Of a stretch of 64,000 nucleotides of DNA, positions 40,889-64,000 are shown one piece after another. The notes under the pieces were generated by a model. The model was not told the DNA's origin and ran no database searches. It was given only the letters and a program-made list of their open reading frames with translations. The translations under genes and the position numbers were made by a program. Every line of letters begins with the position of its first letter. Within the stretch, counting starts at the first letter, position 1. This DNA is from Candidatus Omnitrophota bacterium (GTDB taxonomy: Bacteria; Omnitrophota; Gorgyraeia; Zapsychrales; JANLHA01), in contig JAHFFT010000006.1 of assembly GCA_023247795.1 (NCBI GenBank), positions 4,664 through 68,663 on the forward strand, read 5' to 3'.

Positions 40889-40896
40889 AAACGTGT

Positions 40897-40960: not shown

Positions 40961-40982
40961 AGTTGTGATGAGAGGTTGAGGC

Positions 40983-41402: not shown

Positions 41403-41417
41403 GAGCAGAGGAGTAAG

Positions 41418-41753: not shown

Positions 41754-41808
41754 TTGTGAATTGAATAGTGAATTAGAGAAGAGTGAAATAAGGAGCGAGG
41801 TGTCAAAA

Positions 41809-42120
41809 ATGAGGCAAAGAGGACAAAGCACGTTAGAGTATATGATTCTGCTGATTTTGATCATCGCCGCGTTCATCGCGATCGGTAACTATTTTGGCCG
41901 CGGGGTGTTGGGGCGCTGGAAGGCCGCGGTGGATGATTTGGGGGATCAATATGATCCGCGGTTAACCAACGGCAAAGTGACGGTCAGTTTGTCGGCCAAT
42001 ATGGAAAGCCGGGTTGTTTCCGTTCCTGATGAGACCCGTGAAGGCGTATGGACGATTCGTACTGATCAATCCAACTCTCTTGAGCGGCGTTCGGGATTCA
42101 CCAGCGTCGGAGGGTTTTAA
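41809..42120 (+). CDS. prepilin-like protein (GDQYDP family)
   Basis: MRQRG/QSTLEYMILLILIIAAFIAI...DDLGDQYDPRLTN. AAGGAG RBS. Confidence 0.6.
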   Translation: MRQRGQSTLEYMILLILIIAAFIAIGNYFGRGVLGRWKAAVDDLGDQYDPRLTNGKVTVSLSANMESRVVSVPDETREGVWTIRTDQSNSLERRSGFTSVGGF

Positions 42121-43553: not shown

Positions 43554-43855
43554 AAGGTGAAGAGAGAGTAGTGAATAAAAAAATTCAAGCCCAGGTGACC
43601 ATCGAGTTTACTTTCAGCATGATGATCACGTTATTGTTGATCGTCGGGATGATTAAGGTCTTCACCTGGACCGGACGGGATTTGGCCGACCGTATTCACG
43701 CCCATGAAGAGATTTTAACTAAGGATTTAGGGTGTACCAGCTCTTCTTGTCCTATGAAGCAGATTAAGCCCACGTTTTATACGGCGACGGACATCGATGC
43801 CGCCTACCCCGCGAATTTTTTCAATTTTGACATGAAAGGGCTTGAGAAGGATTAA
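43550..43855 (+). CDS. TadE-like pseudopilin (101 aa)
   Basis: ...KIQAQVTIEFTFSMMITLLLIV.... Start overlaps the upstream stop by 4 nt. Confidence 0.55.
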   Translation: MKGEERVVNKKIQAQVTIEFTFSMMITLLLIVGMIKVFTWTGRDLADRIHAHEEILTKDLGCTSSSCPMKQIKPTFYTATDIDAAYPANFFNFDMKGLEKD

Positions 43856-43869
43856 ACGAGCAGCCATAG

Positions 43870-46800
43870 GTGGTTTTTGTGATCAATGAATTGAATAAAA
43901 AAATAATGCAGGTAAAAAGGTTTTTTCAAATCCGAAATCCGATTTCTGAAAAACACCGTTCAGAAAAAGGGCAGATCGCGGTGATTTTGATTTTGGTCGC
44001 CGCGGTCGGTCTGATTTTTTACGCGGTCGTGTTCAATTTTAACCGCATTTCGCAAATCAAAACGTTAACCATGCAGGCGGCAAATGCCTCGGCAGCTCAG
44101 ATGGTTTCTTCGATGGCGAGTTATGGAGAGTCGGTTTGGCAGGTGTATTTGAGAGGCAAGCTCGATGGGAAGAAACCAGGCTATTGTAAGCATGATAATG
44201 TTTTTAAGATGATCATCAAATTCATCATTATCCTCATCATTGTTATTATTGCCGTTATTACGGGACAATGGTGGGCTATATACGCAATCATAGCATTGGC
44301 ATATAGTTTTGTGGCGATTGTCTTGCAAGTTACGGTGGTCCAACCCGGGCTAACCGATGCCTGGAATAAAATGATCGCCAATTTATCGATCGCCGATCAA
44401 TTTGTTGAGATGGGGGTGCAAGCGGGCATTCAGGGTGTCGTTACGGACAATGTGCAAATTCCCGATTTGATTGACAGCGACTCTGATGGAATTTTTGGCG
44501 ACCTGCAGAATCCTTCTGATAAAAAAAGCGCGCCGGACTACATCTCACGTTTTGGATATAACTATACCCAGCGGTTGCGGCGGATTCCTATAGTTGATAG
44601 TTCCGCTGTCAATTATTTTATCAATGGAATAAAAGATGTGGGCGGTTTGAAGGATTTATTAGTGAAGACCGGCGATGTCAATGACTGGGGAGTTCATGCG
44701 GCTGGAACTGGGAGCGCCCTATCGGCATGCTGTTTGCCCGATGCTGCAGAAAATCCGGACCGTCCGGCCTGTTGCGATCTTCCCATCGACAATGATGATT
44801 TCTGCGGTGACAAAGATAAAGATAACTATGATGAAGAGTGTTCGTTGGGCGTTCGTCCGGAGGGGTGTCCTTCGAACTCGAAAGCCATCTGCGCAAAGGA
44901 AAGTATTTATTCTACCGTCACTAATCAGAACCCTCAGGGTCTATATAATGGTCGATATGATTACCCCTATGCCTACGAAGCCTTTCCGGAAAACACGAAT
45001 AATGCGGCATTGTCTTTCCGTGCGCAGTTAGGCCGAGATGATGAACACCATTTGTATCGACGAGATCCCAATAATCCCAATGGGCGGCAGCTGTTGATTT
45101 CGCCGATTCCCCCTGAGGGAACGCCAGGGCGGTTTTTTGTTGAAGACGCCAGCGGGGTTTTTCCATTTTTTTATAAGATTGGCCAATGGGGCGTTGATTT
45201 GAATGAAATCGATTATAGTAAAGTCACAACCGAGGATGTCCGTTGCAACTTGTGCGATGCAGGTAAGATGCTAGGCGCTCCTTTAAACTCTTCTACGAAT
45301 CCAGGCGTTTGTACGAATCTTCCCAGCGAGGTTTCACCGCAGTTGAGTCTGCCGCTTAATCCGACGCAAGACGGAGGTTTTCGACCCAGTGGCGGCTGGT
45401 GTGTGGATAGTGTCAATACCGGGAAGGCAGGAGATCCGCCGCAGGTCTTGGATATTGTGCCGTCGATCAATGAGTTATTTACGCCAACTAATCCAAATCC
45501 AGATTCAATACCTCCCGAAGAAGAATGCGCGGTTGGCCCAGGCAACGCCGGAGGCTGGAAACCAGGTGCGGACCGGTTTTGTTCTACTGTATATCCTTAT
45601 TCGTCCGCCTGTTTTAAGCATGGAGGAAAGGATCAGTGTTTGGTTGATTCAGAAATGGGACCGATAGGGTTTGACTGCCTGTGCGGCGAGGGGGCGGCGG
45701 CTTCCGTATCTGCGAATCTATGGCCTGATGACGCGTTGGACGAAATCGTTTATGGGCTGCCTTATTTCATTGAATACGCCCAAGGGTTGGTCAATGTTTC
45801 TACGATACAATTGAATCAGACCCTTGTCGAGTGGTATGAACAGACCGCGGATTGGATTGAGCCGGGGTGTGAGCGCACGGAAAATCCTAGCTGTCCACCG
45901 GGGTGCGAAGCAAATTCTAGTTGTCCACCGGGATGTGAAAAGAAGACCAGCTGTCCGGGGAGTTTTACAAAGAAAGGTCGTGATGGCCCGTTGAAAACCG
46001 TGAGCGGGAAGATGGTTGCGGGATCGGTATTGGATAAAAATGAGAAAGGGGAAAATGAGAAAATCGTCGGTGGGGGCGGATATCTTTATGGTTGGGTACG
46101 GGACTTGGCCAATTTTCGTAACCCAATTTATCATTGGTTGTATCCCACACAGGAAAAGGCCTATGTTGCCGACTCTTGCACGATCAAGTCCGCGGCTGAT
46201 GATAAAGCCGCTTGGTGTGTTCCGCCGTCACAGAATTCGAAGAACAACTTTGATGTGAAGGAATGTCCCGGCGTGACCGCTGAAGAGGCTGAAACTTTCG
46301 ACGCGAATAAAAATGGGGTTCGCGGTGATGTCGAAGACGTGGTGGCTTGCCTGCGGTTTAACGCCGGCGATGCCGCTAAGGGAAAGTTGAGCAATGAAGC
46401 GAAGTTCACGGCTTGTCAAACGGCTTGCTCAACGGGGACGGATGTCACGACCCAGTGCGCGTATCTGCCGCGATCGGTGGTACCCGGGTTCATCAATAGT
46501 TATGAAAATTATTTTGACGGGCAGCAGGTGAAGGGCAATCCTTGCGCCGACACCAATTTTAAAACATTATTAGATAAAAGTGTTGAAGAATCCCGCAACC
46601 AAGATGTCAAATTGCAGAAGCGTTTGAAATTTTTAGACGGTCGTTTGAAAGAGGCCCAAAACATCGCCGGGGAGACCGGGGTTTTTACCGCAGCGATCAA
46701 CAAACTTGAGGCCTTTTTAAACGCGGGGACCAAGTTTGCTGCCCCTACGGTTAAACCGGTACAAGACCTAGGAAACGGATTAGTAGCATCGATCGTTGAG

Positions 46801-47667
46801 CAAATCGCTGACCCCGTTGTTGTTCTTAATAATCAAGATTCGCCGTCGGAGGCATTGATTCAAGAAATGCTGAAACCCGAAGTCGCGCCTGACCAAAAAG
46901 GGTTATCTTCGGTCGTCGTTTATGTCTGGCAGGATGCCCAGCGCGACGATTTGCGCACGACCGCCTCGGGACGCAAGACCTTTGAAGGTTATTGGCACGC
47001 GGTCAAGGCCGAGGTGCGTATGCCCACCCGCTGCAACTATGCCTGCGGGGTGAATGGGGGGTGGGATCCGGAATATCCTTCCATTAAGACCAAGACCAAA
47101 GGGTTTTTGGGAAGCACAAGATGTTATTATTTAGAAAACAGCGATGGTATGGTTAAGGCGCGGACCATTCGTTTTGATGAAGACGTGGATCCGAAAAAAA
47201 TGGCTTTCCCGAATGGAACGCCGATTTGGGATTTTCGTTTTTTTCATCCCGATGCTGGCAAGGCCAGCATTCAAAATATCCTCGCGGATTGTAAAGAGCA
47301 AGTGGATCCATTGATCGCGAATATGAGTAAAGGATGGGGGGACCCTAATCCTCCTCTCAATTGTTGTTTTGCGGAAAAACCAGAGGAACATCATTGTACG
47401 GAAGAAGAGGCCAAGACTTGCACAAACAAATTTTTTGGCGCAAGCTTTTTATTGGACAAGATTCCTGATTATATGGCCCTCGCTGGCAGCGACGCATATA
47501 AGTATCGGGTTTGTTGGCAGCGCGTGCACGAAGATCTTTTAGCGCACGGTGTAGCGACGGAATCCTGCGCTCAGTATTTTTTTGGCGGCGCTGACAGTGG
47601 GGGCCCCGCCGGGATGCGCATGAAATTTGTGCCTTGCGATGAGCGTTTTATTAAGGGATTCAATTGA
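43870..47667 (+). CDS. 1265-aa TadG-like membrane-anchored protein with a Cys-rich ectodomain
   Basis: N-terminus ...SEKGQIAVILILVAAVGLIFYAV... plus a second TM segment. About 45 Cys in total. Tandem SCPPGCE repeats encoded at 45885-45960. Confidence 0.7.
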   Translation: MVFVINELNKKIMQVKRFFQIRNPISEKHRSEKGQIAVILILVAAVGLIFYAVVFNFNRISQIKTLTMQAANASAAQMVSSMASYGESVWQVYLRGKLDGKKPGYCKHDNVFKMIIKFIIILIIVIIAVITGQWWAIYAIIALAYSFVAIVLQVTVVQPGLTDAWNKMIANLSIADQFVEMGVQAGIQGVVTDNVQIPDLIDSDSDGIFGDLQNPSDKKSAPDYISRFGYNYTQRLRRIPIVDSSAVNYFINGIKDVGGLKDLLVKTGDVNDWGVHAAGTGSALSACCLPDAAENPDRPACCDLPIDNDDFCGDKDKDNYDEECSLGVRPEGCPSNSKAICAKESIYSTVTNQNPQGLYNGRYDYPYAYEAFPENTNNAALSFRAQLGRDDEHHLYRRDPNNPNGRQLLISPIPPEGTPGRFFVEDASGVFPFFYKIGQWGVDLNEIDYSKVTTEDVRCNLCDAGKMLGAPLNSSTNPGVCTNLPSEVSPQLSLPLNPTQDGGFRPSGGWCVDSVNTGKAGDPPQVLDIVPSINELFTPTNPNPDSIPPEEECAVGPGNAGGWKPGADRFCSTVYPYSSACFKHGGKDQCLVDSEMGPIGFDCLCGEGAAASVSANLWPDDALDEIVYGLPYFIEYAQGLVNVSTIQLNQTLVEWYEQTADWIEPGCERTENPSCPPGCEANSSCPPGCEKKTSCPGSFTKKGRDGPLKTVSGKMVAGSVLDKNEKGENEKIVGGGGYLYGWVRDLANFRNPIYHWLYPTQEKAYVADSCTIKSAADDKAAWCVPPSQNSKNNFDVKECPGVTAEEAETFDANKNGVRGDVEDVVACLRFNAGDAAKGKLSNEAKFTACQTACSTGTDVTTQCAYLPRSVVPGFINSYENYFDGQQVKGNPCADTNFKTLLDKSVEESRNQDVKLQKRLKFLDGRLKEAQNIAGETGVFTAAINKLEAFLNAGTKFAAPTVKPVQDLGNGLVASIVEQIADPVVVLNNQDSPSEALIQEMLKPEVAPDQKGLSSVVVYVWQDAQRDDLRTTASGRKTFEGYWHAVKAEVRMPTRCNYACGVNGGWDPEYPSIKTKTKGFLGSTRCYYLENSDGMVKARTIRFDEDVDPKKMAFPNGTPIWDFRFFHPDAGKASIQNILADCKEQVDPLIANMSKGWGDPNPPLNCCFAEKPEEHHCTEEEAKTCTNKFFGASFLLDKIPDYMALAGSDAYKYRVCWQRVHEDLLAHGVATESCAQYFFGGADSGGPAGMRMKFVPCDERFIKGFN

Positions 47668-47715
47668 TAGATCAATCCGCCCCTTCAATGGGGGAGGTCA
47701 GGTGGGGGTTTTTCA

Positions 47716-48102
47716 TTGGCAAAAGGAAATATGATGTGTTACAATCGGTTTGATCGACGCTGTCAAAATGAGCGCGGCGTTTCTTCGGCCATCGAATATA
47801 TGGCCATGATCACTTTTATTTTGATGGCGTTTTTTATTTCCCAACATTTTATTATGAAGGGTTTTGCCGGACGCTGGAAAGCGGCCGGCGACGCGTTTGG
47901 ACACGGTAAGCAATATGACCCCAGAGATTCTACTAAGGGTGGAAGTGTTGAGTGTTTTTTTGACGCCAAAAAGTCGTTGTGGATCAGCACCCGCTGTTTT
48001 AAATCGAAATGTGTCACTGGAATACCGTCGGATCCGGATTGTCAGCAGTTTTTGGATCCATGCAGTGAGTTGCAATCAGCGAATTCGAAATGCGGTGATT
48101 GA
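47716..48102 (+). CDS. prepilin-like protein (Cys-containing C-terminus)
   Basis: ...ERG/VSSAIEYMAMITFILMAFFI...GRWKAAGDAFGHGKQYDPRD. Confidence 0.55.
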   Translation: MAKGNMMCYNRFDRRCQNERGVSSAIEYMAMITFILMAFFISQHFIMKGFAGRWKAAGDAFGHGKQYDPRDSTKGGSVECFFDAKKSLWISTRCFKSKCVTGIPSDPDCQQFLDPCSELQSANSKCGD

Positions 48103-51156: not shown

Positions 51157-51174
51157 AATTAACCGAGTATGACT

Positions 51175-54100
51175 ATGGACGAAAGCAGATTGGACATTAA
51201 AAATATAAGTACTACTAGAGGCAGTATTAAAAATTTTAATACTAATAGAGATAGTCTTTCGTCTATATTGCCGCATATTCTCCCAAAGGAAGAACCAAAA
51301 CCATTCAAAAGCGGGTTTAAGCATTGGATTCGTATCGTTGCCATGATCGTGATCGCGGTGTTTTTGCCGGAACAGATCAGCTGGGCGTTCAACTACAACC
51401 CAGCAGTTCTCTGGGGAGGGCCAAAGCAGGATTTGATGCACTTAGCCCAGCCCGCACCGGTTATGCCAACTCCGGCGCAAGTCCAAATTCCAGTTGTCCC
51501 TAGCGATGCCGAGATTTCTCAGCAGCTTTCGCAAAGCGTACACGATATGCTCGGCCGCATTGCTTATCTTGAAAACGCGCAAGTTCAATTCGACCTGCAA
51601 AACCCCAACGATCCAAACAAAAAGCCGCAATCATCAATTCAAATCAAACCAAAGAACGTTGTCACCGAACAAAGCATGATGGCCTATGTCGAGTGGCTGC
51701 GCCAGCCAGGGATTAAACCCCTCAACTGCGGTGTCTATGCTTTGCGGGATTTATTGGGAGCCAACGGATTGCAGGTGAGTTTGCAAGAGTTGTCATTAGC
51801 CACATTGATGGAGGACATCTTAAACGGCATTATCAAACCCGGAGATCCTAAACTCAAGACCTCACTTTACGCGATCGATAAAGTCGCTCAAGGTTATAAC
51901 CTGAATCTCAAGGCCGCAAAAGTCCTGCCGCAGGATGTCGTAAAACTCAAAACACCGTTTATCGCCAACCTTGATCCCGAACATTTTGTTACGGTCACGT
52001 TGATTGAGCAGGATAAGGTGAGTTATTTTGATGTCGGCCGTCCGACCATCCTGGCTAAAGACGAATTCATCAAGCAGGCCAATGGGTTTGTCCTAGCGCC
52101 GGATATGGAAAAGCAAACAATCGAATACGCCTTAGTCTCTGATTCGATGAAGGCCTTTGTCTGGGGCAGCCAGTGGGTGAGGATGAAGGATGATTTGCCC
52201 GGCTTGATTGATGATGGAGATATGTGGGACGAGATATATGTCGAGATCGCTATTGAACTTATTGAGGCTTACTTTTTTGGGCCGGCCGTGGCTGTTATGG
52301 CATATGGAGCCTCTGATCTGGCAAGTACTTTGACTGAAATATGTGTGATGAAGAATGTTTGCGGTGAAAATGACACGTTTATTTTTAATTTCATTTTTAC
52401 CACGGTGCTGATGGCCGCTGGAATGTCTATGGGGGATTTCGCAACGGGAGCGGAAAACGGAGTCCTGAAAGAGGGTGCTAAAGGTGGGCTTAAAGAGGGC
52501 GTTAAAGATGGGACTAAAGAGGGAGCTAAAAAGGGGCTTGAAGATACCGCCAAAAGTACGGCGCCGTCCGCGACTGGTGAAGTCGCGGCAACAGCACCAG
52601 CCATCGAACCTGCCGCTGCAGGCGCGTCCCCAACCATTGGTTCAAGATTGGTCGATTCAATCAAAACCGGCACTCAAAATTTTTATAATGAAATGAAAAT
52701 TTCGTTGACCGACTTTGGCAATAAAGTCGTTGGATTTTTTAAAGGGATCGGCGAGTTAGCACAAAAAGGTTTTAATTTTGTAGTGGGTGGTGGGGCGGAC
52801 AAGGCCCCCCAAGCGGCAGGGACGGCAGGACAAGCAACCAATAATTTGGGAGCTGCAAAAGAGCTTGCCAAAACCATGCCGGCGAAGTTCGATATGGCGA
52901 AGTCCTTAGATCGTTTATTTTCCGCCCAGGCCGTAAAGGCATTCTTTGTTGGAGGCATCAAAGCCCTGCCGAAAGCAATTGTCAGCGCGTACGTTAAACA
53001 GGAAGTGTATAAGATCGTGGATAGGAATATTTCCGAAGACATGAACCCCGCTATCCGTCAGGCGTTGGTGGGTGTTGTTTCGTCCATCGGCGGTGAGCTT
53101 TTGTTGGCGGCCGGCATCAAAGGGCTCGGCGCTGCTTTATCGGAGGTATCACCGGAAATGAATAACGCGCTCAGCAAATTATTCAACATGGGCACATACC
53201 AAAGCGAAGAGGACGCGCAGAAAAAGGCCGACGAAGTAGTTGACAATGCTAAAGCAGACACCATCAAAGCCGCTGATAAGACTGTTGAAGGTCAGAATTT
53301 GACAGCAGAGCAAAAAGAAGGAGTGCGAAATGCGGCACTCAAAGCCGATGAATATAAATTCAACGCGATTGAACGAACGGTTTATCAGTCGGAACTTGAC
53401 CGTATTAAGTCAGATAAAAATTATAGTCGTGATAATGACGCCTTTCATGCCAGCACATTTGTCGATGAGTTTAAAGTGATTGGCAAAACCATTGGGCCGC
53501 GTTTGGCGGGTGCCGCGGTCGCTGCTGGTCTGCGTTATCTCGCTGATAAAAATTGGGGTGATGCCGACGCCAAGTCGCAGGTTTCACAAATGATCGGTGA
53601 GATCGGCCAAGCCGTGGGCGGAATTTTATACGGAATTGCCATCAGGCAAGATTCGGGTTACACGAAGGAAGAGATCCATCAGGATAAGGATGGCACGAAG
53701 GAAACAAATTCAGATTATGATAAATATTATCGTGAGAATAAAATCACCGGAAAGCGGGAGTATGTTGCTGAAGGAGATGGCAAGACGATCTACAATCCGG
53801 AATATCCCGGCAGCGAGAAGGGAAAACATTATCTTTTGAGCGACCGAACGTATGGGGCCATGTTATACGATGCTCTTACCAGAGGGGCTGTTGGTCTGTT
53901 GGTCGCGCACGGCCTGGACAATTACGAAAAGCGAAATGTCGATGTGGACGCGAATGGCGATCAAAACCGTTACCAACTGGTTAAAGGACGTGCTGCCATA
54001 TTGGGTGGGCTGATTTTGATTGATACCATCGTGACGGACATTAATAAGTGGGCTGGTATCGATAACCCCGAGCGCTATTTAAAAGACGAAGGGGTCGGGA

Positions 54101-57100
54101 TCACGAAAATCGCCGGCGATTCGTTTATCGCGCGTTATTTCACGACCAGGGTGGCTGAACAATTGATCGCCATGGTCAGACCGATCGCGACTTTTAGCGG
54201 CAGTCTGCCGGGCGAAGACGGGGCCGGGGATGATAACCGCTGGGCGCGCGATCATAAAACCGCTTACGGCGAAAATTACACTTCAAGCCAACAGAATTAT
54301 TTGACTTATCTCACCCAGCTTTCCGAGATGACCGGCCAGTCTTTAGAAACGGTCAATCAGATCAAGGCGAATAGAGACGCGCTCAAAGAACAGCTTAATA
54401 GCGGCCAGATCACTAAGAGCGAGTACGAGGCCAGAAAAATGTTTGCTTTTCACGACATCATGTGGGCCGCAAATGGTGCTTTTTACGTCGATCGGATGAA
54501 TTCGGCAATGGCCGCGGGTTTCGTGAACAATTCTTTTCAAAGCGGCGGGATTTATGATGAGGTCGAGGCCATTCTCGGATACCTTCCGTTAAAAATAACT
54601 TCCGGACTAGCGTTAAATCACCGTGAGGTGGTTTTTAAAAAGGAGACCAAGGAGGGTGAACCTGATAAATTGATTGCCATTGCCACGACCAAGAGCCCAC
54701 GGGAACCGACGATCATTATGGGCGACACCTTGGGATTTGGCTGGGTCAAGGGGATGAATAACCTTAAGATCGATTCCGAGACCAATACGAGCTCGGTCGG
54801 TTTGGGATTTGATCATTTGACTAATCGTTTTCTGGGCTTCTTGACCGATAAGGAACAGAAAGAATTCAACGTGACGGCCGACGAGGCCGGGGTTTTTGAT
54901 TCACATACCGGAGAGAAAATAGTTGGGCTAGAAGAATTAAGGACGTTGAACCATCATCTTGGCATTTTAAATAAAATAAAGACCGGGCAAGCCTACCAGG
55001 AAGAGAACGGCGATGTTTTTGATACCAAGACCAATAAGGTGCTGGCATACGCGGCAGAGATGAAAGATGGGGAGTCCAAATATCAACTGATTACCGCGGA
55101 ATTGAAAAGCGGTCAAACGCAAATCCGCAATGGGATGGACGTGGATATGTTTTCCGGCAACGTGATTTCGAATGTTGCTTTTAAAGACGCCGACGGTAAA
55201 AAACTGGCTGCCGTGCGATTGGATTTTAAGCAAACTCCGGAAAATACCGAAGGCGATAGGAATGGCCAGTTTTTGGTTTTTGGCCGCGCGGACTTGGCAC
55301 GGGAATTTGATATTTCGGGTGTTAAGAACGATATCATCGATAAGATGAAAAAGTTGTCTCCGGACGCGCTTTGGGTGGAGGATGATCAGGGAGATGAAAT
55401 TTTTCATTTTATAGATGTTAAGTCTCTTGAAGAATTTAAAGATAGCATTGATTCGATTGCGAGATTGAAAGATAACCAAGATGAAATTTTAAGTTATGAT
55501 CCTGATTATGATGATGAAGAGCGCCTTGTTCCGAGCAAGCGCGTCATTTTAGACAGCGATGGAAGGGAACTTTTTGTCCTTGATAAGGACAACGCTGATC
55601 CCAGAATTACATTTAAAAAGGGATCGCTTGATTATGTCAAAGAGAATTTTAAAGAATACAGCGCCTCTGACCGGATAACAACATATCAGGGCGATGGTTT
55701 TGGCCGAAGGATTAAAGACGAGGATATCGGCTGGCAGGCGAGCAGACGGATTTCTACGGATGGCTCCGGACAGCAGCAGGACGAGATTGTTTCAAATAAG
55801 CTCGTCGGGGAATCAAGGCTCATTTCGACAGCGGCTTGGTTGCTGATGCCGGAGTTGGCGAATTTAGCGTTGAAGGAGAAAGATGGGGGTGGAGGGTTGG
55901 ATCCAAAGATTATGCGCAAGGTTTTGGAGCAAACAGCAGGAACAGATTCTTTAGGGGTGAGGATGCTGGCGTCCGGTCTTGATCAGGTTAATAAGATGCA
56001 CGCGGAGAATGATACACCATTCACTTATGATTTTGCCGGGACCGACACCCATGGCAAGACCATGTTTAAATTGCAGGGCAACAATAACGAAAACGGCAAG
56101 ATGACCATAATTTTTGATAAAAGCGGCAAGGCGAACATTCGTTTGGCGCGGGACAACAATGCTAACCTTGATATCTTCGACGGGGCGCTGAATTTGGTTG
56201 GCTACAATAAAGACGAGGCCGTGGCGATCAAGGCGATAAAAGCAGTAGGGCTGTCCGCCGCCGACATCATTTTTGGACGGGGGTTTGATGCGAATGTTTA
56301 TTCCATCAGGGATTTGGTGGCTCGGGAAGAGAAGAGTGATAAATTGGAAGCGGGCTTGACGGATTTGGTCATCAGTCAAGCAAACAGTCAATTAACGACA
56401 CTTTTGAATGATTATGGTTATGTTGGTATAACTAACATTGATGTTAATCATTTCCTCAGCAAAGTGAGTCCGTTTGATTTGATGGATAAAGGGTCGATCG
56501 CGATCGACGGGTCAGAGCCGGTCAAGGCAAGTAAGGATACCAGTGTTACGGTAACGGGTAATATTGTTAAAACAATGACTTACGATTTACCTGAGATGAA
56601 TGATTTGACCACCAGCAAGGTGGATCAGGGTAAGGATCTAGGGCAGATTTCTATGAGCGACGGGCGGGAGACAATCATGAGGTACGATCGTGTTGATGAT
56701 GATGTAAAGAGCAAATTTATAATGAAAAACGATCACGATGAGATGCGTGTGACGACCGCAGGCGATATTAGTGTAGATAATAATGTTTTCAAGATTATTA
56801 ATTATGATCCGACTGATGCGGATATGGCTCATGGCATAAAAGTGGATATTGAAGGTTTGAAAAATGCTTTGTGGGAAAATGATTGGGTTGCCACGAGCGC
56901 AGGATTGCGAGAGATTGTCAGCAATGCCAAGGAACTGCAAAAAAGCGAAAACAATCAGAAAGAAGCATTTAGAGAGGCAGTACAGACGTCGTTGGCTGAG
57001 ATGAAGCAATTCGATAAGGATTATGGGATGTCGGCTGTGGATCAGAATAAAGATCTGATCCTTGCCGCTCTGGGAAAAAATGATAAAGGTGAGCGCATCG

Positions 57101-60100
57101 CGAATGTTTATTCGGCGTATCAGGGCAGGATTTGGGATGAGGATGAGATCATGAAGTATTATGGTTATGAAAAGCCGTCGAGCGAGGCAAGTGATCTCGA
57201 TGGAAGCAATGATGAAAAAGAAAAATTTAATTTGAAGCTGAACCAGGGCACGGTTGCTCATGTCGAAAAATTGGACAGCCCCTTCGGCCGTATGTTCACG
57301 GAAGCAGGTAGTACCAGAAATATGGGGGAAGGGTCGATGGATGATTTATACAAAGTCAATCAGGTCAGTGGCTCGACCTTGGCCGCGATCGCGCCTGTTC
57401 AGCTCGATGATTTAAGAAATTTTATGACGGAGACAGACCGTGTTTTTACGAACGAGGGATTGGGTAAGATCGTTGATCAAGCTAAAGGTGGTCATTTGAA
57501 GAAAGCCCTCGCGGACAATGGTTATGATTTAACAGGCGAGGATATAGCAAAAATTGATGAGAAGGCCGATCTGCGTTTGAAGACTGATCTGCGGGAGAAC
57601 GGTTATACGAATGAACACGGTGAAATTCAGGACAGTTTCAGAAAATTGCAATCAGCCGATGAAATGCGGCTGACTAGTGAATTTGGCGAATTGAAAGATC
57701 AAATTTTTCAAAGTTTAAAAAATTCCGATAATGGCCAAATCACCATGGAACCACTAACACTCACGTCTGGCGGGATCATTGATTACAATTCGAAAAATGG
57801 ACATGCTGATCTGTTCAGCATTCCGCAGGGTGGGCAGTTCGGTGGCTTGCTTCCGAGTGGAAAAGTTGCTTATGACCAACATCCTTCGCAAATTGTCCTG
57901 GAGGAATCCGGTGTTTATCGAGGCCCAGGGAGTGTTTTGGTTTACGGCGAACGCTACGGCCATTCGATTACGACCGATGTTTTTGGCGGTGATTATTTTG
58001 ACAAAAATGTGATTTATCAGATCGGCAGTGACGGTAAGTCTGAAAGTTACGCTTTGGGCAATGGCGAGTTGCCGGAACAGCTTCATATCGGTAAGACCAA
58101 ATTATCAGGAACGCTGAAGACTAAAAACGAAACCACGGTCGCGTATGAAGGAAAAGGTTTTGATATCTCGGTAACCAAGTTTGGCGATTCACAGAAGTTA
58201 AAAAATGTTTCTGATTTGCCGGTTTCGGTTGATATGTCTAAGGTGGCGGAGTCAAGAGCAAACACCTTCTTGACCGAAGACCCGACGGTTACGGTAACGG
58301 AAAAAGGTCAAAGTCCTAGAACGATCACCTTTGATATCAAGGGCCGTGATCAGGAGCATGGATTTATCTGGGAAAAGGGAAGCGAAATTGTTAATCTTCC
58401 CGACGGTACTCGGCAGCTGGTCTTAAGCGGTCCCATCAATGAACCGGGGCTTGCGGATGTTTCGTTCAATCATTCCTCGGAAGAAGGAGCCAGAGTGGAT
58501 GAGCAAAGATCAGCGATCATTCCGATCTTAATCCCGAAGGCCAATGTTTCCAACGGGACAGAGGCTGCCGGACCAGGATTAAAGGTTGATCGTCTTGGGC
58601 TCGGAACGGTTGGCCAGCTCATCGTAGCAAGTGGAGAGCCGGTTGATTCTGCCACGAAAAAAATTGTCGGAGCAGATGGACAAGAGAAAGAAGAAGAGTA
58701 TCGGGTTTATAACGCTAATTTTGAGGGAGAAGATGATGCCACGGACAGCGCCGGGGTTCGGCGGTTGATCGTAGAAGGCAATCCGTTCAAGTCAAAAGAG
58801 CGATTTGGCAACATCGAATTGGACCAGCCAACGACCAATATGGGTTTTACGATTAAGCACGACATAGATACAGCAGGGAAAAGTCCGGAGGATGTTAAAA
58901 GGGAAGAGCGGAATCAGGCGGTTCATTTGGAGACTAAAATACAGGAAACATCAAAGGACAGTTATGCACCATCTGTTAACCCAAATGGAATTTTGGATCC
59001 GATGTTAGTTGTTGGCAACGACTTGGATCTATGGGATACAACGATGATTGATACAAGATCGATTTCTAAACTCTCGGCCATCGATGGTTTTGATATTGAT
59101 CTCTTAGGTAATTACCATGTTCATGACGGCACGCGAAAGGTTTCTGAATTGTTAAATATTGATAAGACGTATGAATCCGCATCGGGAAAATTAACGGTAA
59201 TCAAATCAGATAAATATGGGGTGGTTTATGAAAATCCAGAGCAGACGTTTGAATATTTTTCAAGCGCAAAGTTAACGACGGTTTCTAAATTAGATGAATC
59301 AAAGTCTCGTCTGGATTCTATCATTTATGATGTGAGAAAAGGACTGGCTTCGGGTTTTGATAAGGATGAGAATTGGAATGGTTCCGAAGGGCAGCTCTTT
59401 GTCAAAAGCATTGATTTTGACAGCCGAAGTTTAACGTATGACAATAAAGATTTTAAATTGGGAGTGGAAGGTTATAAAAAAGCTGATCAGCGTTTTGCTG
59501 ATACCGTGCTGCGGGCTCAAGGGAGCGAATTGGTTTTAGGCGGGGGTAATAAAGAGGAAAAGAGTGTTCAGCTCTCAAATGCGGCCAGCAGTTATCGGGA
59601 TAAGTTGGTTCAGGAATTGCAACTGTTTAGCAATATGAACACGGATCAGATCAAGGAACATTTAAGGGAAAGATTTCAAGAAATCAATATCCCATTTGGC
59701 GATGACGCGAGTTTTCAAAGGGAGGTCGGTAAGGTATTTGGTACCCTAGTAAAACTTTTTGAGGGACACAGCACGTTAAGCAAGGACAATGAAATGCTTG
59801 CGGATTTTGGTCAGTTGGCCTGGAATTTAACAAAACAGGATCCGGACACGGCCGCCCTGTTAGTTGGTGTTAAAAATGAAGACCGGGGCGCGATCAATGA
59901 TTACGCGCATGCCATGCGCCAGACTGAGGTTTTGAACACCTTTGACAACTGGAATGAGAATCAAAATGATTTACCGAATTTAGGAAAGCTGCATGGGGCC
60001 GCGGACGGGTATGAAGCGACTGCTAAAGCAGGGAATTCTCGAACATTTCAGGAGACCGGTGCAGATGGAAAACAAAATATTAATCGGGAGGAAGGCCTGA

Positions 60101-63100
60101 CCATTGCCTTAGGGGATATGCAGGTGACGAGAGCGCAAGGGCTTCAGCTCGCCTTGCAAAAGGCAGATTTAAAAGCCATCGAAAATATCGCTCAGCGTTC
60201 CAGTGACCAAGATTTAAAAAATAAGCTGGTTGATTTGGCTAAGGCGATACGTGCAGGTTCGGTTCCGGATGCGGTAGGGTTCTCCGATTTGATTGTCAGT
60301 AAAGGGCTGGATTCATTTGTCAATTCACCGGACTCGGTTAATTTAGAAATTGTCAAGGAGATTGCCCGCTTAGGTGATGCTAAGGCAGGGAAAAATATCT
60401 TTAGCGGTGATATCAAACGCCTGCCGTTCACCGAGGGATCTCGTTATTATTTCGAAGGCCCGATTGATCCAAAGCTCAAAGAGGCGTTTGGTCCCATCGG
60501 ATTTGGCGTCAACGACGGGCATTTTGAAGGGATTAAAGAGAAATTTTTTGAAATTCATGAACGTGGGGATTTTTTGGGAATGGAGCAACATTTTACGTTT
60601 ACGGGTCATTACGACGATGCGAATGGCCAAGCTAAAGTTGAACAAGTCCATTTACAGGGTAATAACGCCGGATATATTGCAAATATTTCAAAGTTGCTGG
60701 GTCAAGAAATTTTGTTCCAAGGCAGGGAGACCGATATTACGTTAACAGCCCAGAATGGGTTTATGGATCTGCGTGAGGACGGCAGTATTTCTGTTCCACA
60801 AGGAGTTGACGTCCAGGCCTGCGGTTCGATGCCGGGATGTCTTAAGGACAAGACGAGACTTTTGGAAAGCATCGATTCATATGTGACCTTTGGTGAGACT
60901 CGCAAACTCGCCTATGGCAAGATTAGTGGGACCGGTGAGTTTGCTCATATTTTCGATCTTAATTTTCCGAAGCATGAGCCTGCGCCCTCTGAGGAAAAGG
61001 CACCAGAACCAAATGATCAAGAAACAACCCGTGTCGTCGTGCGGCCGGTAGGCGATGGTGTCGTTTCGATTACGGAATCAGGAGAAAAAGCTGATAAGAA
61101 ACTTCAGGAGCAAACCGCTCCCAAAGATTTGACGGAACAAGGGAAGAAAACATATCAAAAGATTGTTGATAAAACCCTTCTTACCCAGCAGGTTTTTAAC
61201 CTGGGTGTCCCGATTGAACGGTTTCACAATGGTAAAATCGAGCAAGATATGCAATTGACAGCGCTTCCACAATTGGCCTTGGAGAACGGCTCGCTGGCGG
61301 TCTTGGATCAAAGCGTTAAGAAGCCGGCTATTTCGCAAGCAGAACTGGCCGATTTTTTAAAGACCGGGAAACTTCCGTCCGCGTATAAAAAGCAGGGTAT
61401 TCCGGTTTTGACAGGGTTTAATTTAGAAAAGGATGATAAAGAAAAAATTTCAGTCAGCATTGCATCTAAAGGTGAACAGGGGGAAATCGCGGAGATATCA
61501 TCTCTTGTCCGAAATCCAAACGCAACAGGCCAATTTTCTAACGACGCGGTTGGGATGGAATGGACACCCAGCGGCCCGAAATTTTTTGGCGGGGAGAGTT
61601 TGGGACGAGCGGTTGTTGGACATCTGCAAAGAGAAGGAGTCGTTCTTCCTACCGATGAACGTTTGGGCAAGTTATCGCTCGATAAAGCGCCAAAGGCTGT
61701 TTATGATTTGAAATATGCCGGTGAACAGATTTTGAGCCCGACAAGCGGGAAATGGGTTAGCGTGGATCAAGGGAAATTTAGGGTTGGCGGTACGGTGACG
61801 GATCCAACATCTGTTTCTCATGTTAATTCGGTCTCGGGAGCATTTATTTATGACCGCGTTGCTCAGGTCACGGGCTGGCGGCCGCTGTATGACAATAATG
61901 AAAATTTAGTTGATCTCGAATATCTTGCCACCAAGGGATCCATGGAAGCGCCAGTCACCCCTGGTTTTATTGTTAATCAATCAAATGATTTCGGGTTTAA
62001 GATCACACTAGTAGCTCCCAACCTTAATAATAAGCCACAAGAAAAACAACCCGAAGAGCAACAGAACCCTCTTAAGAATCAAGAATTGCATAACGTGAAT
62101 ATTTCTCCAAAGCCGGATGAGAATAAAAATCTTGTTATGGTTTTCGGCCCGGGTGACGTCAAACAACAACTCTTAGAATCTTCGATCGGTTTTACCATTG
62201 ACAATCCTTATGCTGTTAATGATCCGATGCGGGCACGGATAGGTATTGATCGGCCGGATACACAGGTCACCATTTTGAATGAACACCTTGAGGATGAGCG
62301 AGCCGGTGAGCCTAATTTGAAGGATGGCGGTTATTATGGCGCCCGTCCGGGGACGTTTTCGGGTGGGGCGGATTCCGCGTATATCAAGGCCAAGAAAGCA
62401 GAGATTACGGCGGCGTGGAATGACTTGAACGAGGAAGAAGCTCTCCTTAAGGGTGCTGGTAAAAATCCTGATCAAGACGTGCATTATAAAAAGCATAAAG
62501 AAGAAGTAGCAAATTTAATCGATAGCTTACCTATTGTGCAGCAGACCACCTCTGCCGGAGATCGGCTCCGCTATAAGCTTACGAAGATGTTGGTTGACAA
62601 TATCCATACTGGCGGTTTAGGGTTTGTAGGGTTTGAGTATTCCGGTGGAAAATTCGGTTGGGTGAGGCCGGCAGAACCAAAGCCGGAAGATTTTTCTAGA
62701 CCTTCTGACTATCGAGTGGCCAAGATCAATTACGATGCCGCTGAAGATGAATTTAAAAAGATCATGGCTCCATTAGTTAAAGGAAGCGGCCAAGTTGTTG
62801 ATGGTTTCACAATGGATCAGGTGGGATTGATGCATTTTCTTAACGGGACTGAGCCGCAATATATTTCTGACGGGCTTGTTTCTTCCAGTTACGATTTATT
62901 GCGCGGTAAAAATTTTGTTGATAAACCAATCACCAGCCAAGACGCGGTGGACCCCAGCAAAAATATTTCAAAAACCGAAAGGAATGCTGCAAAATTCATA
63001 TCTTTAATTCAAGAATATATAACGGGTCCAGTGGGTGAGAGGTTAGGGGAGGTTGCAGATAAAGTGATGAATAATCCGCGGTATGCTTTTAACCCGGACC

Positions 63101-64000
63101 CGAATAATAAAATGCTAGATTCTGCTGATGAGGTGAGAGTGGTGTTTCAGGGAATTGACGGAACCCCTAAAACTTATATTGACAAGTCATATAAATTTGA
63201 AAAGGTATTTGCAGCGCTATCGCAGCATGGGTATTCGGAAATGAGAGACTATCAGGGTTTAGCGCAAAGTTTATATAACGCCCGTACGCTTGAAATCGCG
63301 GTCAACGTGGGAGAAGCCTTTGCGATTGTGGGGTCGCTGGGAGTTGATGGGGCGTTTGTCAAAGCCGGTTTTAGGAATATCAGGCAGGCAGCGTTTAAGA
63401 ATTTATCTACGCAATCATTCCGCATCATAAGTGAAAACGCGTTTAAAGATTATTCGGCGAAGAAGGCCATCGGGTTTGCCGTTGGCGGTGCTGCGGTTGA
63501 TCAAATGATGACGAAAAGGTACACCGGAGAATATGGTGAAATAGACGGATCAACTCTTTTTCACGCGCTGGCATCGGCCGCGATGTTTGGCAAGAAAGGA
63601 ACATTTCTTACGAAGCTGATTACACAGGCTGATGAAAGTGGTTTAAAATTGGCAAAATATGTGGTGGCCAATCCCAGCGTATTGGTCAAGGCCGGAAAGC
63701 AGTTGGCCATCAGTGAAGCCGGTGTTTTAACCGCGGCCACTGTTTATAACAAGTATGTTAATGATCAATGGCTTTACAGTCCTAAGGAATATGCCGCTAT
63801 CTTAGGCGTTGGGGCGGCTTTACCGCTGGCATATCAGGGCTTACGGACGATAACTCCGCAGGCGGCTAAGACCGCTGTTTTTAGTGTGCATAAAGCCTTA
63901 GCCTCAAATTATGCTTTGGGGTACTCGGCGTTGGCCATTCCGGTCGGTAATTATTTATGGAAGCAAAATACCGGCCATGACCTTGGTTGGGGGAATGCGA
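51175..64000 (+). CDS. giant ORF, truncated by window edge (over 4,275 codons): N-terminal TM segment, C39-like peptidase motif, Lys/Gly/Glu-rich repeat, then a very long region with no recognisable domains
   Basis: Read manually: ATG at 51175, then no in-frame stop to the window end at 64000, so the C-terminus lies outside the window. Cys in ...PLNCGVYAL..., His in ...DPEHFVTV..., Asp in ...SYFDVG.... The other five frames carry only short ORFs across the region. Confidence 0.8.
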   Translation, partial: MDESRLDIKNISTTRGSIKNFNTNRDSLSSILPHILPKEEPKPFKSGFKHWIRIVAMIVIAVFLPEQISWAFNYNPAVLWGGPKQDLMHLAQPAPVMPTPAQVQIPVVPSDAEISQQLSQSVHDMLGRIAYLENAQVQFDLQNPNDPNKKPQSSIQIKPKNVVTEQSMMAYVEWLRQPGIKPLNCGVYALRDLLGANGLQVSLQELSLATLMEDILNGIIKPGDPKLKTSLYAIDKVAQGYNLNLKAAKVLPQDVVKLKTPFIANLDPEHFVTVTLIEQDKVSYFDVGRPTILAKDEFIKQANGFVLAPDMEKQTIEYALVSDSMKAFVWGSQWVRMKDDLPGLIDDGDMWDEIYVEIAIELIEAYFFGPAVAVMAYGASDLASTLTEICVMKNVCGENDTFIFNFIFTTVLMAAGMSMGDFATGAENGVLKEGAKGGLKEGVKDGTKEGAKKGLEDTAKSTAPSATGEVAATAPAIEPAAAGASPTIGSRLVDSIKTGTQNFYNEMKISLTDFGNKVVGFFKGIGELAQKGFNFVVGGGADKAPQAAGTAGQATNNLGAAKELAKTMPAKFDMAKSLDRLFSAQAVKAFFVGGIKALPKAIVSAYVKQEVYKIVDRNISEDMNPAIRQALVGVVSSIGGELLLAAGIKGLGAALSEVSPEMNNALSKLFNMGTYQSEEDAQKKADEVVDNAKADTIKAADKTVEGQNLTAEQKEGVRNAALKADEYKFNAIERTVYQSELDRIKSDKNYSRDNDAFHASTFVDEFKVIGKTIGPRLAGAAVAAGLRYLADKNWGDADAKSQVSQMIGEIGQAVGGILYGIAIRQDSGYTKEEIHQDKDGTKETNSDYDKYYRENKITGKREYVAEGDGKTIYNPEYPGSEKGKHYLLSDRTYGAMLYDALTRGAVGLLVAHGLDNYEKRNVDVDANGDQNRYQLVKGRAAILGGLILIDTIVTDINKWAGIDNPERYLKDEGVGITKIAGDSFIARYFTTRVAEQLIAMVRPIATFSGSLPGEDGAGDDNRWARDHKTAYGENYTSSQQNYLTYLTQLSEMTGQSLETVNQIKANRDALKEQLNSGQITKSEYEARKMFAFHDIMWAANGAFYVDRMNSAMAAGFVNNSFQSGGIYDEVEAILGYLPLKITSGLALNHREVVFKKETKEGEPDKLIAIATTKSPREPTIIMGDTLGFGWVKGMNNLKIDSETNTSSVGLGFDHLTNRFLGFLTDKEQKEFNVTADEAGVFDSHTGEKIVGLEELRTLNHHLGILNKIKTGQAYQEENGDVFDTKTNKVLAYAAEMKDGESKYQLITAELKSGQTQIRNGMDVDMFSGNVISNVAFKDADGKKLAAVRLDFKQTPENTEGDRNGQFLVFGRADLAREFDISGVKNDIIDKMKKLSPDALWVEDDQGDEIFHFIDVKSLEEFKDSIDSIARLKDNQDEILSYDPDYDDEERLVPSKRVILDSDGRELFVLDKDNADPRITFKKGSLDYVKENFKEYSASDRITTYQGDGFGRRIKDEDIGWQASRRISTDGSGQQQDEIVSNKLVGESRLISTAAWLLMPELANLALKEKDGGGGLDPKIMRKVLEQTAGTDSLGVRMLASGLDQVNKMHAENDTPFTYDFAGTDTHGKTMFKLQGNNNENGKMTIIFDKSGKANIRLARDNNANLDIFDGALNLVGYNKDEAVAIKAIKAVGLSAADIIFGRGFDANVYSIRDLVAREEKSDKLEAGLTDLVISQANSQLTTLLNDYGYVGITNIDVNHFLSKVSPFDLMDKGSIAIDGSEPVKASKDTSVTVTGNIVKTMTYDLPEMNDLTTSKVDQGKDLGQISMSDGRETIMRYDRVDDDVKSKFIMKNDHDEMRVTTAGDISVDNNVFKIINYDPTDADMAHGIKVDIEGLKNALWENDWVATSAGLREIVSNAKELQKSENNQKEAFREAVQTSLAEMKQFDKDYGMSAVDQNKDLILAALGKNDKGERIANVYSAYQGRIWDEDEIMKYYGYEKPSSEASDLDGSNDEKEKFNLKLNQGTVAHVEKLDSPFGRMFTEAGSTRNMGEGSMDDLYKVNQVSGSTLAAIAPVQLDDLRNFMTETDRVFTNEGLGKIVDQAKGGHLKKALADNGYDLTGEDIAKIDEKADLRLKTDLRENGYTNEHGEIQDSFRKLQSADEMRLTSEFGELKDQIFQSLKNSDNGQITMEPLTLTSGGIIDYNSKNGHADLFSIPQGGQFGGLLPSGKVAYDQHPSQIVLEESGVYRGPGSVLVYGERYGHSITTDVFGGDYFDKNVIYQIGSDGKSESYALGNGELPEQLHIGKTKLSGTLKTKNETTVAYEGKGFDISVTKFGDSQKLKNVSDLPVSVDMSKVAESRANTFLTEDPTVTVTEKGQSPRTITFDIKGRDQEHGFIWEKGSEIVNLPDGTRQLVLSGPINEPGLADVSFNHSSEEGARVDEQRSAIIPILIPKANVSNGTEAAGPGLKVDRLGLGTVGQLIVASGEPVDSATKKIVGADGQEKEEEYRVYNANFEGEDDATDSAGVRRLIVEGNPFKSKERFGNIELDQPTTNMGFTIKHDIDTAGKSPEDVKREERNQAVHLETKIQETSKDSYAPSVNPNGILDPMLVVGNDLDLWDTTMIDTRSISKLSAIDGFDIDLLGNYHVHDGTRKVSELLNIDKTYESASGKLTVIKSDKYGVVYENPEQTFEYFSSAKLTTVSKLDESKSRLDSIIYDVRKGLASGFDKDENWNGSEGQLFVKSIDFDSRSLTYDNKDFKLGVEGYKKADQRFADTVLRAQGSELVLGGGNKEEKSVQLSNAASSYRDKLVQELQLFSNMNTDQIKEHLRERFQEINIPFGDDASFQREVGKVFGTLVKLFEGHSTLSKDNEMLADFGQLAWNLTKQDPDTAALLVGVKNEDRGAINDYAHAMRQTEVLNTFDNWNENQNDLPNLGKLHGAADGYEATAKAGNSRTFQETGADGKQNINREEGLTIALGDMQVTRAQGLQLALQKADLKAIENIAQRSSDQDLKNKLVDLAKAIRAGSVPDAVGFSDLIVSKGLDSFVNSPDSVNLEIVKEIARLGDAKAGKNIFSGDIKRLPFTEGSRYYFEGPIDPKLKEAFGPIGFGVNDGHFEGIKEKFFEIHERGDFLGMEQHFTFTGHYDDANGQAKVEQVHLQGNNAGYIANISKLLGQEILFQGRETDITLTAQNGFMDLREDGSISVPQGVDVQACGSMPGCLKDKTRLLESIDSYVTFGETRKLAYGKISGTGEFAHIFDLNFPKHEPAPSEEKAPEPNDQETTRVVVRPVGDGVVSITESGEKADKKLQEQTAPKDLTEQGKKTYQKIVDKTLLTQQVFNLGVPIERFHNGKIEQDMQLTALPQLALENGSLAVLDQSVKKPAISQAELADFLKTGKLPSAYKKQGIPVLTGFNLEKDDKEKISVSIASKGEQGEIAEISSLVRNPNATGQFSNDAVGMEWTPSGPKFFGGESLGRAVVGHLQREGVVLPTDERLGKLSLDKAPKAVYDLKYAGEQILSPTSGKWVSVDQGKFRVGGTVTDPTSVSHVNSVSGAFIYDRVAQVTGWRPLYDNNENLVDLEYLATKGSMEAPVTPGFIVNQSNDFGFKITLVAPNLNNKPQEKQPEEQQNPLKNQELHNVNISPKPDENKNLVMVFGPGDVKQQLLESSIGFTIDNPYAVNDPMRARIGIDRPDTQVTILNEHLEDERAGEPNLKDGGYYGARPGTFSGGADSAYIKAKKAEITAAWNDLNEEEALLKGAGKNPDQDVHYKKHKEEVANLIDSLPIVQQTTSAGDRLRYKLTKMLVDNIHTGGLGFVGFEYSGGKFGWVRPAEPKPEDFSRPSDYRVAKINYDAAEDEFKKIMAPLVKGSGQVVDGFTMDQVGLMHFLNGTEPQYISDGLVSSSYDLLRGKNFVDKPITSQDAVDPSKNISKTERNAAKFISLIQEYITGPVGERLGEVADKVMNNPRYAFNPDPNNKMLDSADEVRVVFQGIDGTPKTYIDKSYKFEKVFAALSQHGYSEMRDYQGLAQSLYNARTLEIAVNVGEAFAIVGSLGVDGAFVKAGFRNIRQAAFKNLSTQSFRIISENAFKDYSAKKAIGFAVGGAAVDQMMTKRYTGEYGEIDGSTLFHALASAAMFGKKGTFLTKLITQADESGLKLAKYVVANPSVLVKAGKQLAISEAGVLTAATVYNKYVNDQWLYSPKEYAAILGVGAALPLAYQGLRTITPQAAKTAVFSVHKALASNYALGYSALAIPVGNYLWKQNTGHDLGWGNA

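Follow-up and report, generated by a model that had tools for sequence, protein, structure and literature searches.

What kind of protein is encoded by a gene that runs for at least 12.8 kb behind a Tad-like pilus island and is still open where the available stretch ends? The question is raised by 64,000 nt of a contig from an Omnitrophota metagenome-assembled genome (MAG; GenBank assembly GCA_023247795.1, contig JAHFFT010000006.1, positions 4,664 to 68,663), hereafter the window. Giant genes account for several percent of the sequence in the small Omnitrophota genomes and are believed to be involved in attachment to other microbes or predation on them; to our knowledge, none of their parts has a demonstrated function. 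The reading to which we incline is that of a giant envelope protein with a signal-anchored, extracytoplasmic C39 protease, whose body would be displayed for contact with, or attack on, other cells.

A giant gene open at the window edge

Between 51175 and 63999, the +1 frame comprises 4,275 codons without a single stop, and the remaining five frames of the same stretch contain 125-413 stops. From base composition, the probability of such a stop-free run is about 1e-116. Codon usage in this frame was set against a reference of housekeeping genes taken from the window (dnaA, dnaN, gyrB, gyrA, acrB-like, yidC and others). Because the two agree in each of four tiles (r=0.79-0.84, versus at most 0.46 for the other frames), the entire visible length looks like native coding sequence. 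A preliminary description of this DNA had read the stretch as a real giant gene, stop-free from the ATG at 51175 to the end of the window, and both statements stand.

The frame is closed upstream by an in-frame TAA at 51160-51162 and has in-frame ATGs at 51169 and 51175. The start at 51175 is also called on two independent short-read contigs, and several homologs begin with MD.RLD, to be compared with MDESRLD in the giant protein. An in-frame ORF of 51 aa (51007-51162) was considered as an N-terminal extension disrupted by a repetitive extragenic palindromic (REP) element, and rejected, since the N-termini of the homologs fit the start at 51175. Three independent assemblies (NCBI, Logan, and ENA) are concordant over the N-terminal head of the protein, and the population is represented in samples SRR14366766 and ERZ27297570.

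The conserved head and its C39 domain

The head carries a domain of the Peptidase_C39 family (PF03412), matched over residues 184-309 with 27.6 bits in the whole protein and 31.4 bits in its first 500 aa, for a gathering score of 22; the match spans positions 12-128 of the 133 of the profile. In addition, a PDB search with a profile built from 16 homologous heads found LahT, through its double-glycine protease domain (6mpz, E = 1.6e-5), and PCAT1; the catalytic Cys and His of 6mpz line up with the corresponding motifs of the heads. A single-sequence search of the PDB with the C39 region returned armadillo-repeat matches only (E ~0.02), which were judged spurious. The domain has the papain-like C39 fold, and the AlphaFold2 (AF2) model of the head (predicted local distance difference test score, pLDDT, of 81.7) shows an extra alpha/beta element N-terminal to the C39 core.

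To assess conservation, the window protein was aligned with 48 genomic relatives (49 sequences). The catalytic Cys is present in all 49 and the His in all 46 that cover its column, while the Asp is found in 45 of 46, the last one having a Glu. His and Asp are 16 residues apart, as in ComA. The Gln of the oxyanion hole, at position -6 relative to the Cys, is never found in the 49 sequences: the column contains D/E/S/G/N/K/A/P, and it is to this variable column that Q21 of 6mpz aligns in the HMMER alignment. Of note, the Asn at position -1 is near-invariant (46/49). Double-glycine leader peptides were found neither among the small ORFs of the upstream island nor in the spacer between tadC and the giant gene, and GG dipeptides are not enriched in the giant protein (23 observed for about 35 expected from 9% Gly). 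The architecture of a peptidase-containing ABC transporter (PCAT) was rejected, as neither ABC_membrane nor ABC_tran matches the visible 4,275 residues at E<=1.

The C39 domain is preceded by a transmembrane (TM) helix, WIRIVAMIVIAVFLP (aa ~51-72), which forms the top hydropathy peak of the protein (Kyte-Doolittle, KD, score of 1.95). Together with the juxtamembrane motif that follows it, this helix (TM1) is the best-conserved stretch of the protein (mean column conservation of 0.77 across the alignment), and the two are modelled by AF2 as a single long helix. A basic flank, PFKSRFKxWIR, is conserved before TM1, and at most one K/R occurs in the 20 residues after it. Since the K/R-rich flank precedes TM1 rather than follows it, the N-terminal tail is probably cytoplasmic and the C39 domain probably extracytoplasmic according to the positive-inside rule. 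From aa ~40 to 420, the conserved elements of the head thus come in the order TM helix, FLPEQxSWAFNYNP motif, C39 domain, and hydrophobic hairpin; the number of hydrophobic segments that follow the C39 domain varies from 0 to 6 across relatives. The preliminary description had proposed an N-terminal TM helix, a C39-like papain-like peptidase with Cys, His, and Asp, a second hydrophobic stretch, and a KEGxK(G/D)G repeat. All four were recovered, the hydrophobic stretch as two peaks within aa 356-420, and the HMMER search for Peptidase_C39 that it suggested for the N-terminal region gave the positive result reported above.

An orphan body and its possible role

Relatives were collected by scanning one genome per species with the head alignment, which gave the 48 loci; at least 48 Omnitrophota species thus share the head. 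Most of them are titled Omnitrophota or Omnitrophica; 16 Third Party Annotation (TPA) bins were titled 'uncultured Planctomycetales' by their submitters, and one Elusimicrobia. A search with the first 800 residues likewise yielded 21 protein homologs, all with PF03412 and most of them cut short by contig ends; 20 are named as, or fit, Candidatus Omnitrophota/Omnitrophica, and one is labelled Elusimicrobia by its submitter. The kinship with giant ORFs of episymbiotic or predatory uncultivated lineages that had been suspected beforehand is thereby supported. The C39-headed frame is open to the end of the available DNA in 44 of the 48 loci, and every locus with a full 10 kb downstream is open for at least 3,578-3,740 codons. 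Among the four loci in which the frame stops, two do so at runs of N and one at a frameshift, beyond which an overlapping frame stays open over 1,468 codons; a single one (772 aa) may be truly short. Orthologs of TadB and TadC (37-73% identity) lie upstream in 32 loci. MAG contigs, such as those of our loci L015, L026, L028, L042, L043, and others, often have one end inside the C39 gene or no more than a few hundred bases away from its start. As a result, public annotations are mostly 'partial' proteins of 450-1,200 aa, which hides the giant size.

In all 48 relatives, similarity to the head ends at aa ~390-470 and is confined to aa ~40-420 (tblastn). Further on, aa 521-660 are matched in 5 of 30 relatives, with sporadic matches up to aa ~1160 (phmmer tiles), and three loci (L008, L022, and L005) give weak collinear matches of 22-24% identity (blastp). 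No match at E<=1e-3 was found for aa 1001-2000 and 3501-4275 in an index of 5.8 billion proteins, nor for aa 2001-3200 when 1.84 billion representatives were scanned in full with HMMER (E <= 0.001), and the body did not match the first ~3,600 aa of the giant ORFs of the 48 relatives. It contains no Pfam or NCBIfam domain and, upon self-comparison, no internal repeats; neither an adhesin, toxin, glycosidase, or SecA-like domain nor any other effector or enzyme domain is seen in the visible 4,275 residues. About 3,000 residues form a hydrophilic stretch devoid of TM-grade segments except for an isolated hydropathy peak at aa 1682-1700. Cys is rare, with two residues in the orphan body and five in all 4,275 (0.12%). 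At the window edge, mean KD is +0.07, versus about -0.5 for the body, with a hydropathy peak at aa 4039-4057; this Ala/Gly-rich region is possibly the next membrane-associated segment. Single-sequence AlphaFold prediction of aa 2150-2750 gave a pLDDT of 32 and was unusable.

When 31 giant ORFs were compared, 95% of pairs shared less than 10% of the body, full-length alignment being restricted to close relatives. In alignable pairs, dN/dS is 0.13-0.23 for bodies and 0.08-0.16 for heads. Judged by these values, the bodies are not junk but proteins under constraint, whose evolution is faster than that of the head. In one close pair (L013/L052), dS is 0.89 in the head versus 0.36 in the body, which hints at recombination exchanging head and body separately.

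How could such a protein work? TM1 would act as a signal anchor, leaving the N-terminal tail in the cytoplasm and placing the C39 domain outside the cytoplasmic membrane, i.e., the reverse of the C39 domains of ABC transporters. The active protease would then have one of two targets: a partner protein, or its own giant chain, which it would split into fragments or release from the anchor. The body would be exposed in the envelope or on the cell surface, possibly after passage through the adjacent secretin machine, and may be used to contact host or prey cells or to attack them, as was proposed from proteomics for Velamenicoccus archaeovorus; this last step comes from the published V. archaeovorus data and not from the sequence of the giant ORF. 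The rapid turnover of the body sequence would fit adaptation to different partners. More specifically, the head could be a self-contained maturation module found throughout the phylum, in which an active, Gln-less C39 protease, fixed to the outer face of the cytoplasmic membrane by the signal anchor and its strictly conserved juxtamembrane motif, and the always-neighbouring Tad-like machine are dedicated to the processing and export of a rapidly diversifying giant cargo. This extension is rather unlikely; if true, it would represent a secretion logic distinct both from type I/PCAT systems, with their cytoplasmic, transporter-borne C39, and from classical Tad pili, which are cargo-less.

Several points weigh against this proposal of a displayed, self-anchored protease. 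With the canonical oxyanion Gln absent throughout, peptidase activity is not certain, the neighbourhood offers no candidate with a double-glycine leader, and the protein itself has no excess of GG. As the number of hydrophobic segments after the C39 domain varies, the body may lie on either side of the membrane. Because no adhesin, glycosidase, SecA-like, or effector domain is visible, a role at the surface or in predation is suggested by analogy. As to the pilus, what connects it to the giant protein is genetic adjacency only; TadB and TadC are missing in three loci despite 10 kb of upstream DNA, and in this genome the giant gene is unlikely to be transcribed together with the Tad genes because a hairpin and a transposase gene (see below) intervene between tadC and the giant gene.

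Other explanations have to be considered as well. An artefact or a pseudogene, be it an assembly chimera or an untranslated stop-free stretch, could be suspected from the MAG origin of the contig, from a gene interior that breaks short-read assemblies, and from a body without homologs. It is rendered extremely improbable by the stop statistics and the native codon usage throughout, by the concordance of the three assemblies over the head, by equally long frames in 47 of the 48 relatives (counting the N-gap and frameshift cases) with dN/dS <0.25, and by the peptides reported for the giant protein of V. archaeovorus. The lack of the oxyanion-hole Gln in every sequence would also suit a catalytically silent, C39-like docking or chaperone module that, as in HlyB type I secretion, holds the nascent giant chain or a partner during export, and a chaperone precedent is mentioned by West-Roberts et al. 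(10.1101/2023.11.21.568195). Known C39-like domains have, however, lost the catalytic Cys, which is retained here together with the His and, but for one Glu, the Asp; such invariance argues for strong selection on the triad, and the Asn beside the Cys could substitute for Gln, so that a silent module appears distinctly unlikely.

Alternatively, the C39 domain may process other proteins of the Tad-like system or of the envelope, the giant protein merely tethering the protease near the machine. Such a tether would be in line with the tight and widespread linkage to tadB-tadC and with the lack of a visible A24 prepilin peptidase gene in the island or the window, and the option is left open by West-Roberts et al. 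(10.1101/2023.11.21.568195). We nonetheless hold it to be unlikely: the pilin leaders are classical class III leaders (G|QSTLEY) with a single Gly/Ala at -1 and not double-glycine ones, the type IVa pili that Omnitrophota also possess could supply a peptidase (PMC10066038), and more than 3,800 further residues on a protease tether would be left unexplained. A conserved head with a hypervariable body, together with the hint of recombination in the L013/L052 pair, finally evokes a polymorphic-toxin-like or contact-dependent effector, with a conserved trafficking head and an exchangeable cargo delivered into targets by the Tad-like machine. This is very unlikely, as variability begins right after the head and spans thousands of residues instead of a C-terminal tip, the papain-like domain lies in the conserved and not the variable part, the alignable body blocks are under purifying rather than diversifying selection, and no toxin or immunity gene was seen (the C-terminus is outside the window).

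Genomic neighbourhood and comparison with known systems

The giant gene had been described as following tadB-tadC and a module made of a REP-associated tyrosine transposase (RAYT) and its REP elements, with a REP composite shortly before the start codon, and this arrangement was found again: two T2SSF proteins, a Y1_Tnp gene, and REP palindromes precede the gene (Table 1). The palindromic unit is CAGAATGGACATT-N-AGGGGACAGTCCCCT, and its last copy ends ~15-19 nt before the ATG. Its core has 16 matches at about 11 distinct sites in the window (both strands, at most two mismatches), versus 0.11 expected. The palindromes lie to either side of the transposase gene and are found again at 35.9-36.4 kb and 51.1 kb; a Y1 (IS200-like) transposase with multiple flanking REP palindromes fits a RAYT/REP module. 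A 13-mer resembling an arm of the REP-like element lies within the start of the giant ORF (51186-51198). Another arm-like sequence occurs in yidC (minus strand), where a 15-nt unit, CAGAATGGACAAT / CAGATTGGACATT, nearly identical to one arm, is repeated five times in tandem (7495-7569). The strong terminator-like hairpin between the transposase gene and the giant gene suggests that the latter is transcribed from a promoter of its own, within the last 180 nt. The 0.6-kb upstream spacer is not conserved in the relatives, with only two marginal 45-nt matches.

Table 1. Coordinates of the giant gene, its parts and its upstream neighbours in the window.
Feature	Coordinates	Strand	Evidence
Rotamase_2 peptidyl-prolyl isomerase (PPIase)	29024-30028	+	Pfam
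RcpC/CpaB	30033-30821	+	Pfam
Secretin with C-terminal TonB_C	30902-32830	+	Pfam
TadZ-TadA fusion (ParA/MinD-like domain + TadA ATPase, T2SSE)	32954-35116	+	Pfam
DUF192	35118-35465	+	Pfam
About ten Flp-like pilin genes, KG|QSTLEY-type class III leader	38313..42120	+	translations, Class_IIIsignal
Four conserved Cys-rich pilin-like/unknown proteins (475, 101, 1265, 128 aa)	42126..48102	+	tblastn
TadB	48121-48975	+	PF00482 E=7e-18
TadC	49065-49952	+	PF00482 E=8e-14
REP-like palindromes	49966-50000, 50660-50719, 51119-51160	.	repeat search
Y1_Tnp, RAYT-type transposase gene	50006-50545	-	PF01797 E=1.4e-14
Terminator-like hairpin, 11 pairs + T-run	50961-50990	+	hairpin search
Giant ORF	51175..64000	+	stop-free frame, codon usage, independent gene calls
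N-terminal tail aa 1-50, length varies among homologs, ends PFKSGFKHWIR	51175..51324	+	alignment
TM helix 1 + juxtamembrane motif FLPEQISWAFNYNP, aa 51-77	51325..51405	+	hydropathy, conservation, model
Peptidase C39 domain, aa ~165-310	51667..52104	+	Pfam, profile search, alignment, model
Cys185	51727-51729	+	catalytic residue, motif PLNCGVYAL
His270	51982-51984	+	catalytic residue, motif DPEHFVTV
Asp286	52030-52032	+	catalytic residue, motif YFD
FVWGxxW...LPGL motif, then two hydrophobic segments (aa 356-376, 402-420); conserved head ends here	52132..52434	+	alignment, hydropathy
KEGxK(G/D)G low-complexity repeat, 24 nt x 3.2	52468..52544	+	Tandem Repeats Finder, translation
Weakly conserved membrane-proximal region, aa ~521-1160, with moderate hydrophobic segments (aa 630-648, 935-953)	52735..54654	+	phmmer, blastp, hydropathy
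Hydrophilic orphan body, aa ~1161-4030	54655..63264	+	homology searches, hydropathy
Ala/Gly-rich, moderately hydrophobic region, aa ~4039-4275	63289..64000	+	hydropathy

The upstream island resembles Tad and type II secretion systems (T2SS) and includes two unusual fusions, secretin-TonB_C and TadZ-TadA. One of its pilins was matched by Class_IIIsignal with 26.5 bits, for a cut-off of 23.7. A cassette of three pilin genes is tandemly duplicated (38313-40540, 87% identity); leaders and N-terminal halves are near-identical between the copies while C-terminal halves have diverged, as would be expected for pilin diversification or gene conversion. The four Cys-rich proteins precede TadB in all relatives examined (tblastn, L002-L004 and the 48 loci). 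Their Cys content is 2.1%, 2.0%, 3.5%, and 6.3%, far from the low value of the giant protein, and they have no Pfam or NCBIfam match. In L002-L004, the upstream order is a protein of ~460 aa, one of ~90 aa, one of 1,100-1,700 aa, one of ~120 aa, TadB, TadC, a variable spacer, and the C39 gene. Among the ORFs scanned, neither those of the island nor those of the remaining window matched a prepilin peptidase (A24/TadV), which may be encoded elsewhere in the genome. The island is interrupted by a 594-aa ORF (35864-37720) with a helix-turn-helix-like N-terminus and no Pfam or NCBIfam match. REP-like palindromes are present upstream of it (35864-35920) and within its 5' part (36212-36387), where their translation gives GQSP/GLSP/GDSP peptides; either its true start would be further downstream or REPs would have been inserted in frame.

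The window also covers the replication-origin region (positions 1-17000), with yidC, jag, parAB, dnaA, dnaN, gyrB, and gyrA and a sign change of the GC skew at ~9-10 kb; it contains no rRNA gene. The giant gene is located ~41 kb from dnaA and is co-oriented with replication, so that the Tad island and the giant gene are origin-proximal and on the leading strand; in V. archaeovorus, the Tad locus is at 12-30 kb of the genome (Seymour et al., PMC10066038). Downstream of gyrA, an 85-nt tandem repeat (2.2 copies, 91% matches, 16913-17100) runs into the tRNA-Glu gene (17072-17146). It is followed by a c-di-AMP riboswitch (17652-17776, 47.4 bits for a gathering score of 38), upstream of a CusB-like (HMBD + HlyD) and AcrB/CusA-like pair of the resistance-nodulation-division (RND) type (18388-22906), which seems an unusual target for this riboswitch class.

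With Tad (type IVc) systems, the island shares RcpC/CpaB, an RcpA-type secretin, a TadZ-like ParA, TadA, TadB, TadC, and Flp-like pilins with G/XXXXEY leaders. It differs from classical Tad systems by the fusion of TadZ and TadA, the TonB_C domain of the secretin, the lack of TadV in the island, the roughly ten pilin paralogs, the very large Cys-rich pseudopilin-like proteins, and the giant gene as a constant downstream neighbour.

The C39 domains of PCAT1, ComA, and LahT (MEROPS C39, PF03412) have the same order and spacing of Cys, His, and Asp as the giant protein, and PCAT C39 domains are likewise N-terminal to membrane segments. In contrast to PCATs, no ABC transmembrane or ATPase domain follows the C39 domain in the visible part of the giant protein. 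The domain is itself preceded by a TM helix and is probably extracytoplasmic, whereas that of PCATs is cytoplasmic; it also lacks the oxyanion Gln, has the extra N-terminal alpha/beta element, and has no double-glycine substrate found so far. The C39-like domain (CLD) of HlyB is another case of a papain-like C39 fold tied to the export of a very large, Cys-poor protein, as would be the case here. The CLD is, however, cytoplasmic, transporter-borne, and without the catalytic Cys, while the giant protein has the triad and carries the domain within the large protein itself.

The closest comparison is with the giant genes already reported from Omnitrophota. Giant proteins with N-terminal C39 domains were described in this phylum behind a conserved secretion locus of more than 10 genes, including gspD, gspE, gspF, rcpC, a Rotamase_2 PPIase, and small class III signal-peptide genes, with an Archaeovorin subtype (SecA_DEAD and glycosyltransferase, glycosyl hydrolase, or methyltransferase domains) and a Dockerin type (dockerin and TSP3) (West-Roberts et al., 2023, 10.1101/2023.11.21.568195). 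Giant ORFs and Tad genes were also found across Omnitrophota by Seymour et al. (2023, PMC10066038), peptides of the V. archaeovorus giant protein being 3-fold higher in attached cells. According to a 2026 preprint (10.64898/2026.06.07.730766), the PF03412 group is the largest architecture cluster of long Omnitrophota proteins, and 80% of proteins of at least 10,000 residues are sequence singletons. The gene studied here belongs to the same phylum and has the same plan, with an N-terminal TM/signal region, then C39, few other domains, and a poorly conserved sequence. It also has the same preceding locus (29024-49952), with Rotamase_2, rcpC, gspD, gspE, two gspF/TadBC, and class III signal-peptide genes. 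It is thus, as far as its sequence tells, a further example of an already described, functionally unsolved type of giant gene and does not change the current picture; the preliminary description's suggestion of an undescribed giant adhesin or effector fails as to novelty. Some differences can be noted: 12.8 kb of the gene are visible, still open, with at most about 10 kb more on the 73,938-nt source contig, compared with the criteria of 20 kb in Seymour et al. and 90 kb in West-Roberts et al.; none of the SecA-like, glycosyl-hydrolase/transferase, dockerin, or TSP3 domains of the West-Roberts subtypes is present in the visible 4,275 aa; and tadC is separated from the gene by an inserted RAYT/REP element. 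Known giants are followed by pilZ and solute-binding-protein transporters, and the corresponding 3' side is here beyond the window. To this picture, the present comparison would add a triad kept invariant without the canonical Gln, a C39 domain that probably lies on the extracytoplasmic side, a strictly conserved TM1 with its juxtamembrane motif, and a quantified, sharp boundary between head and orphan body. Being small, foldable, and expressible, the conserved head is the most practical experimental entry to the making, cutting, and export of these giant proteins.

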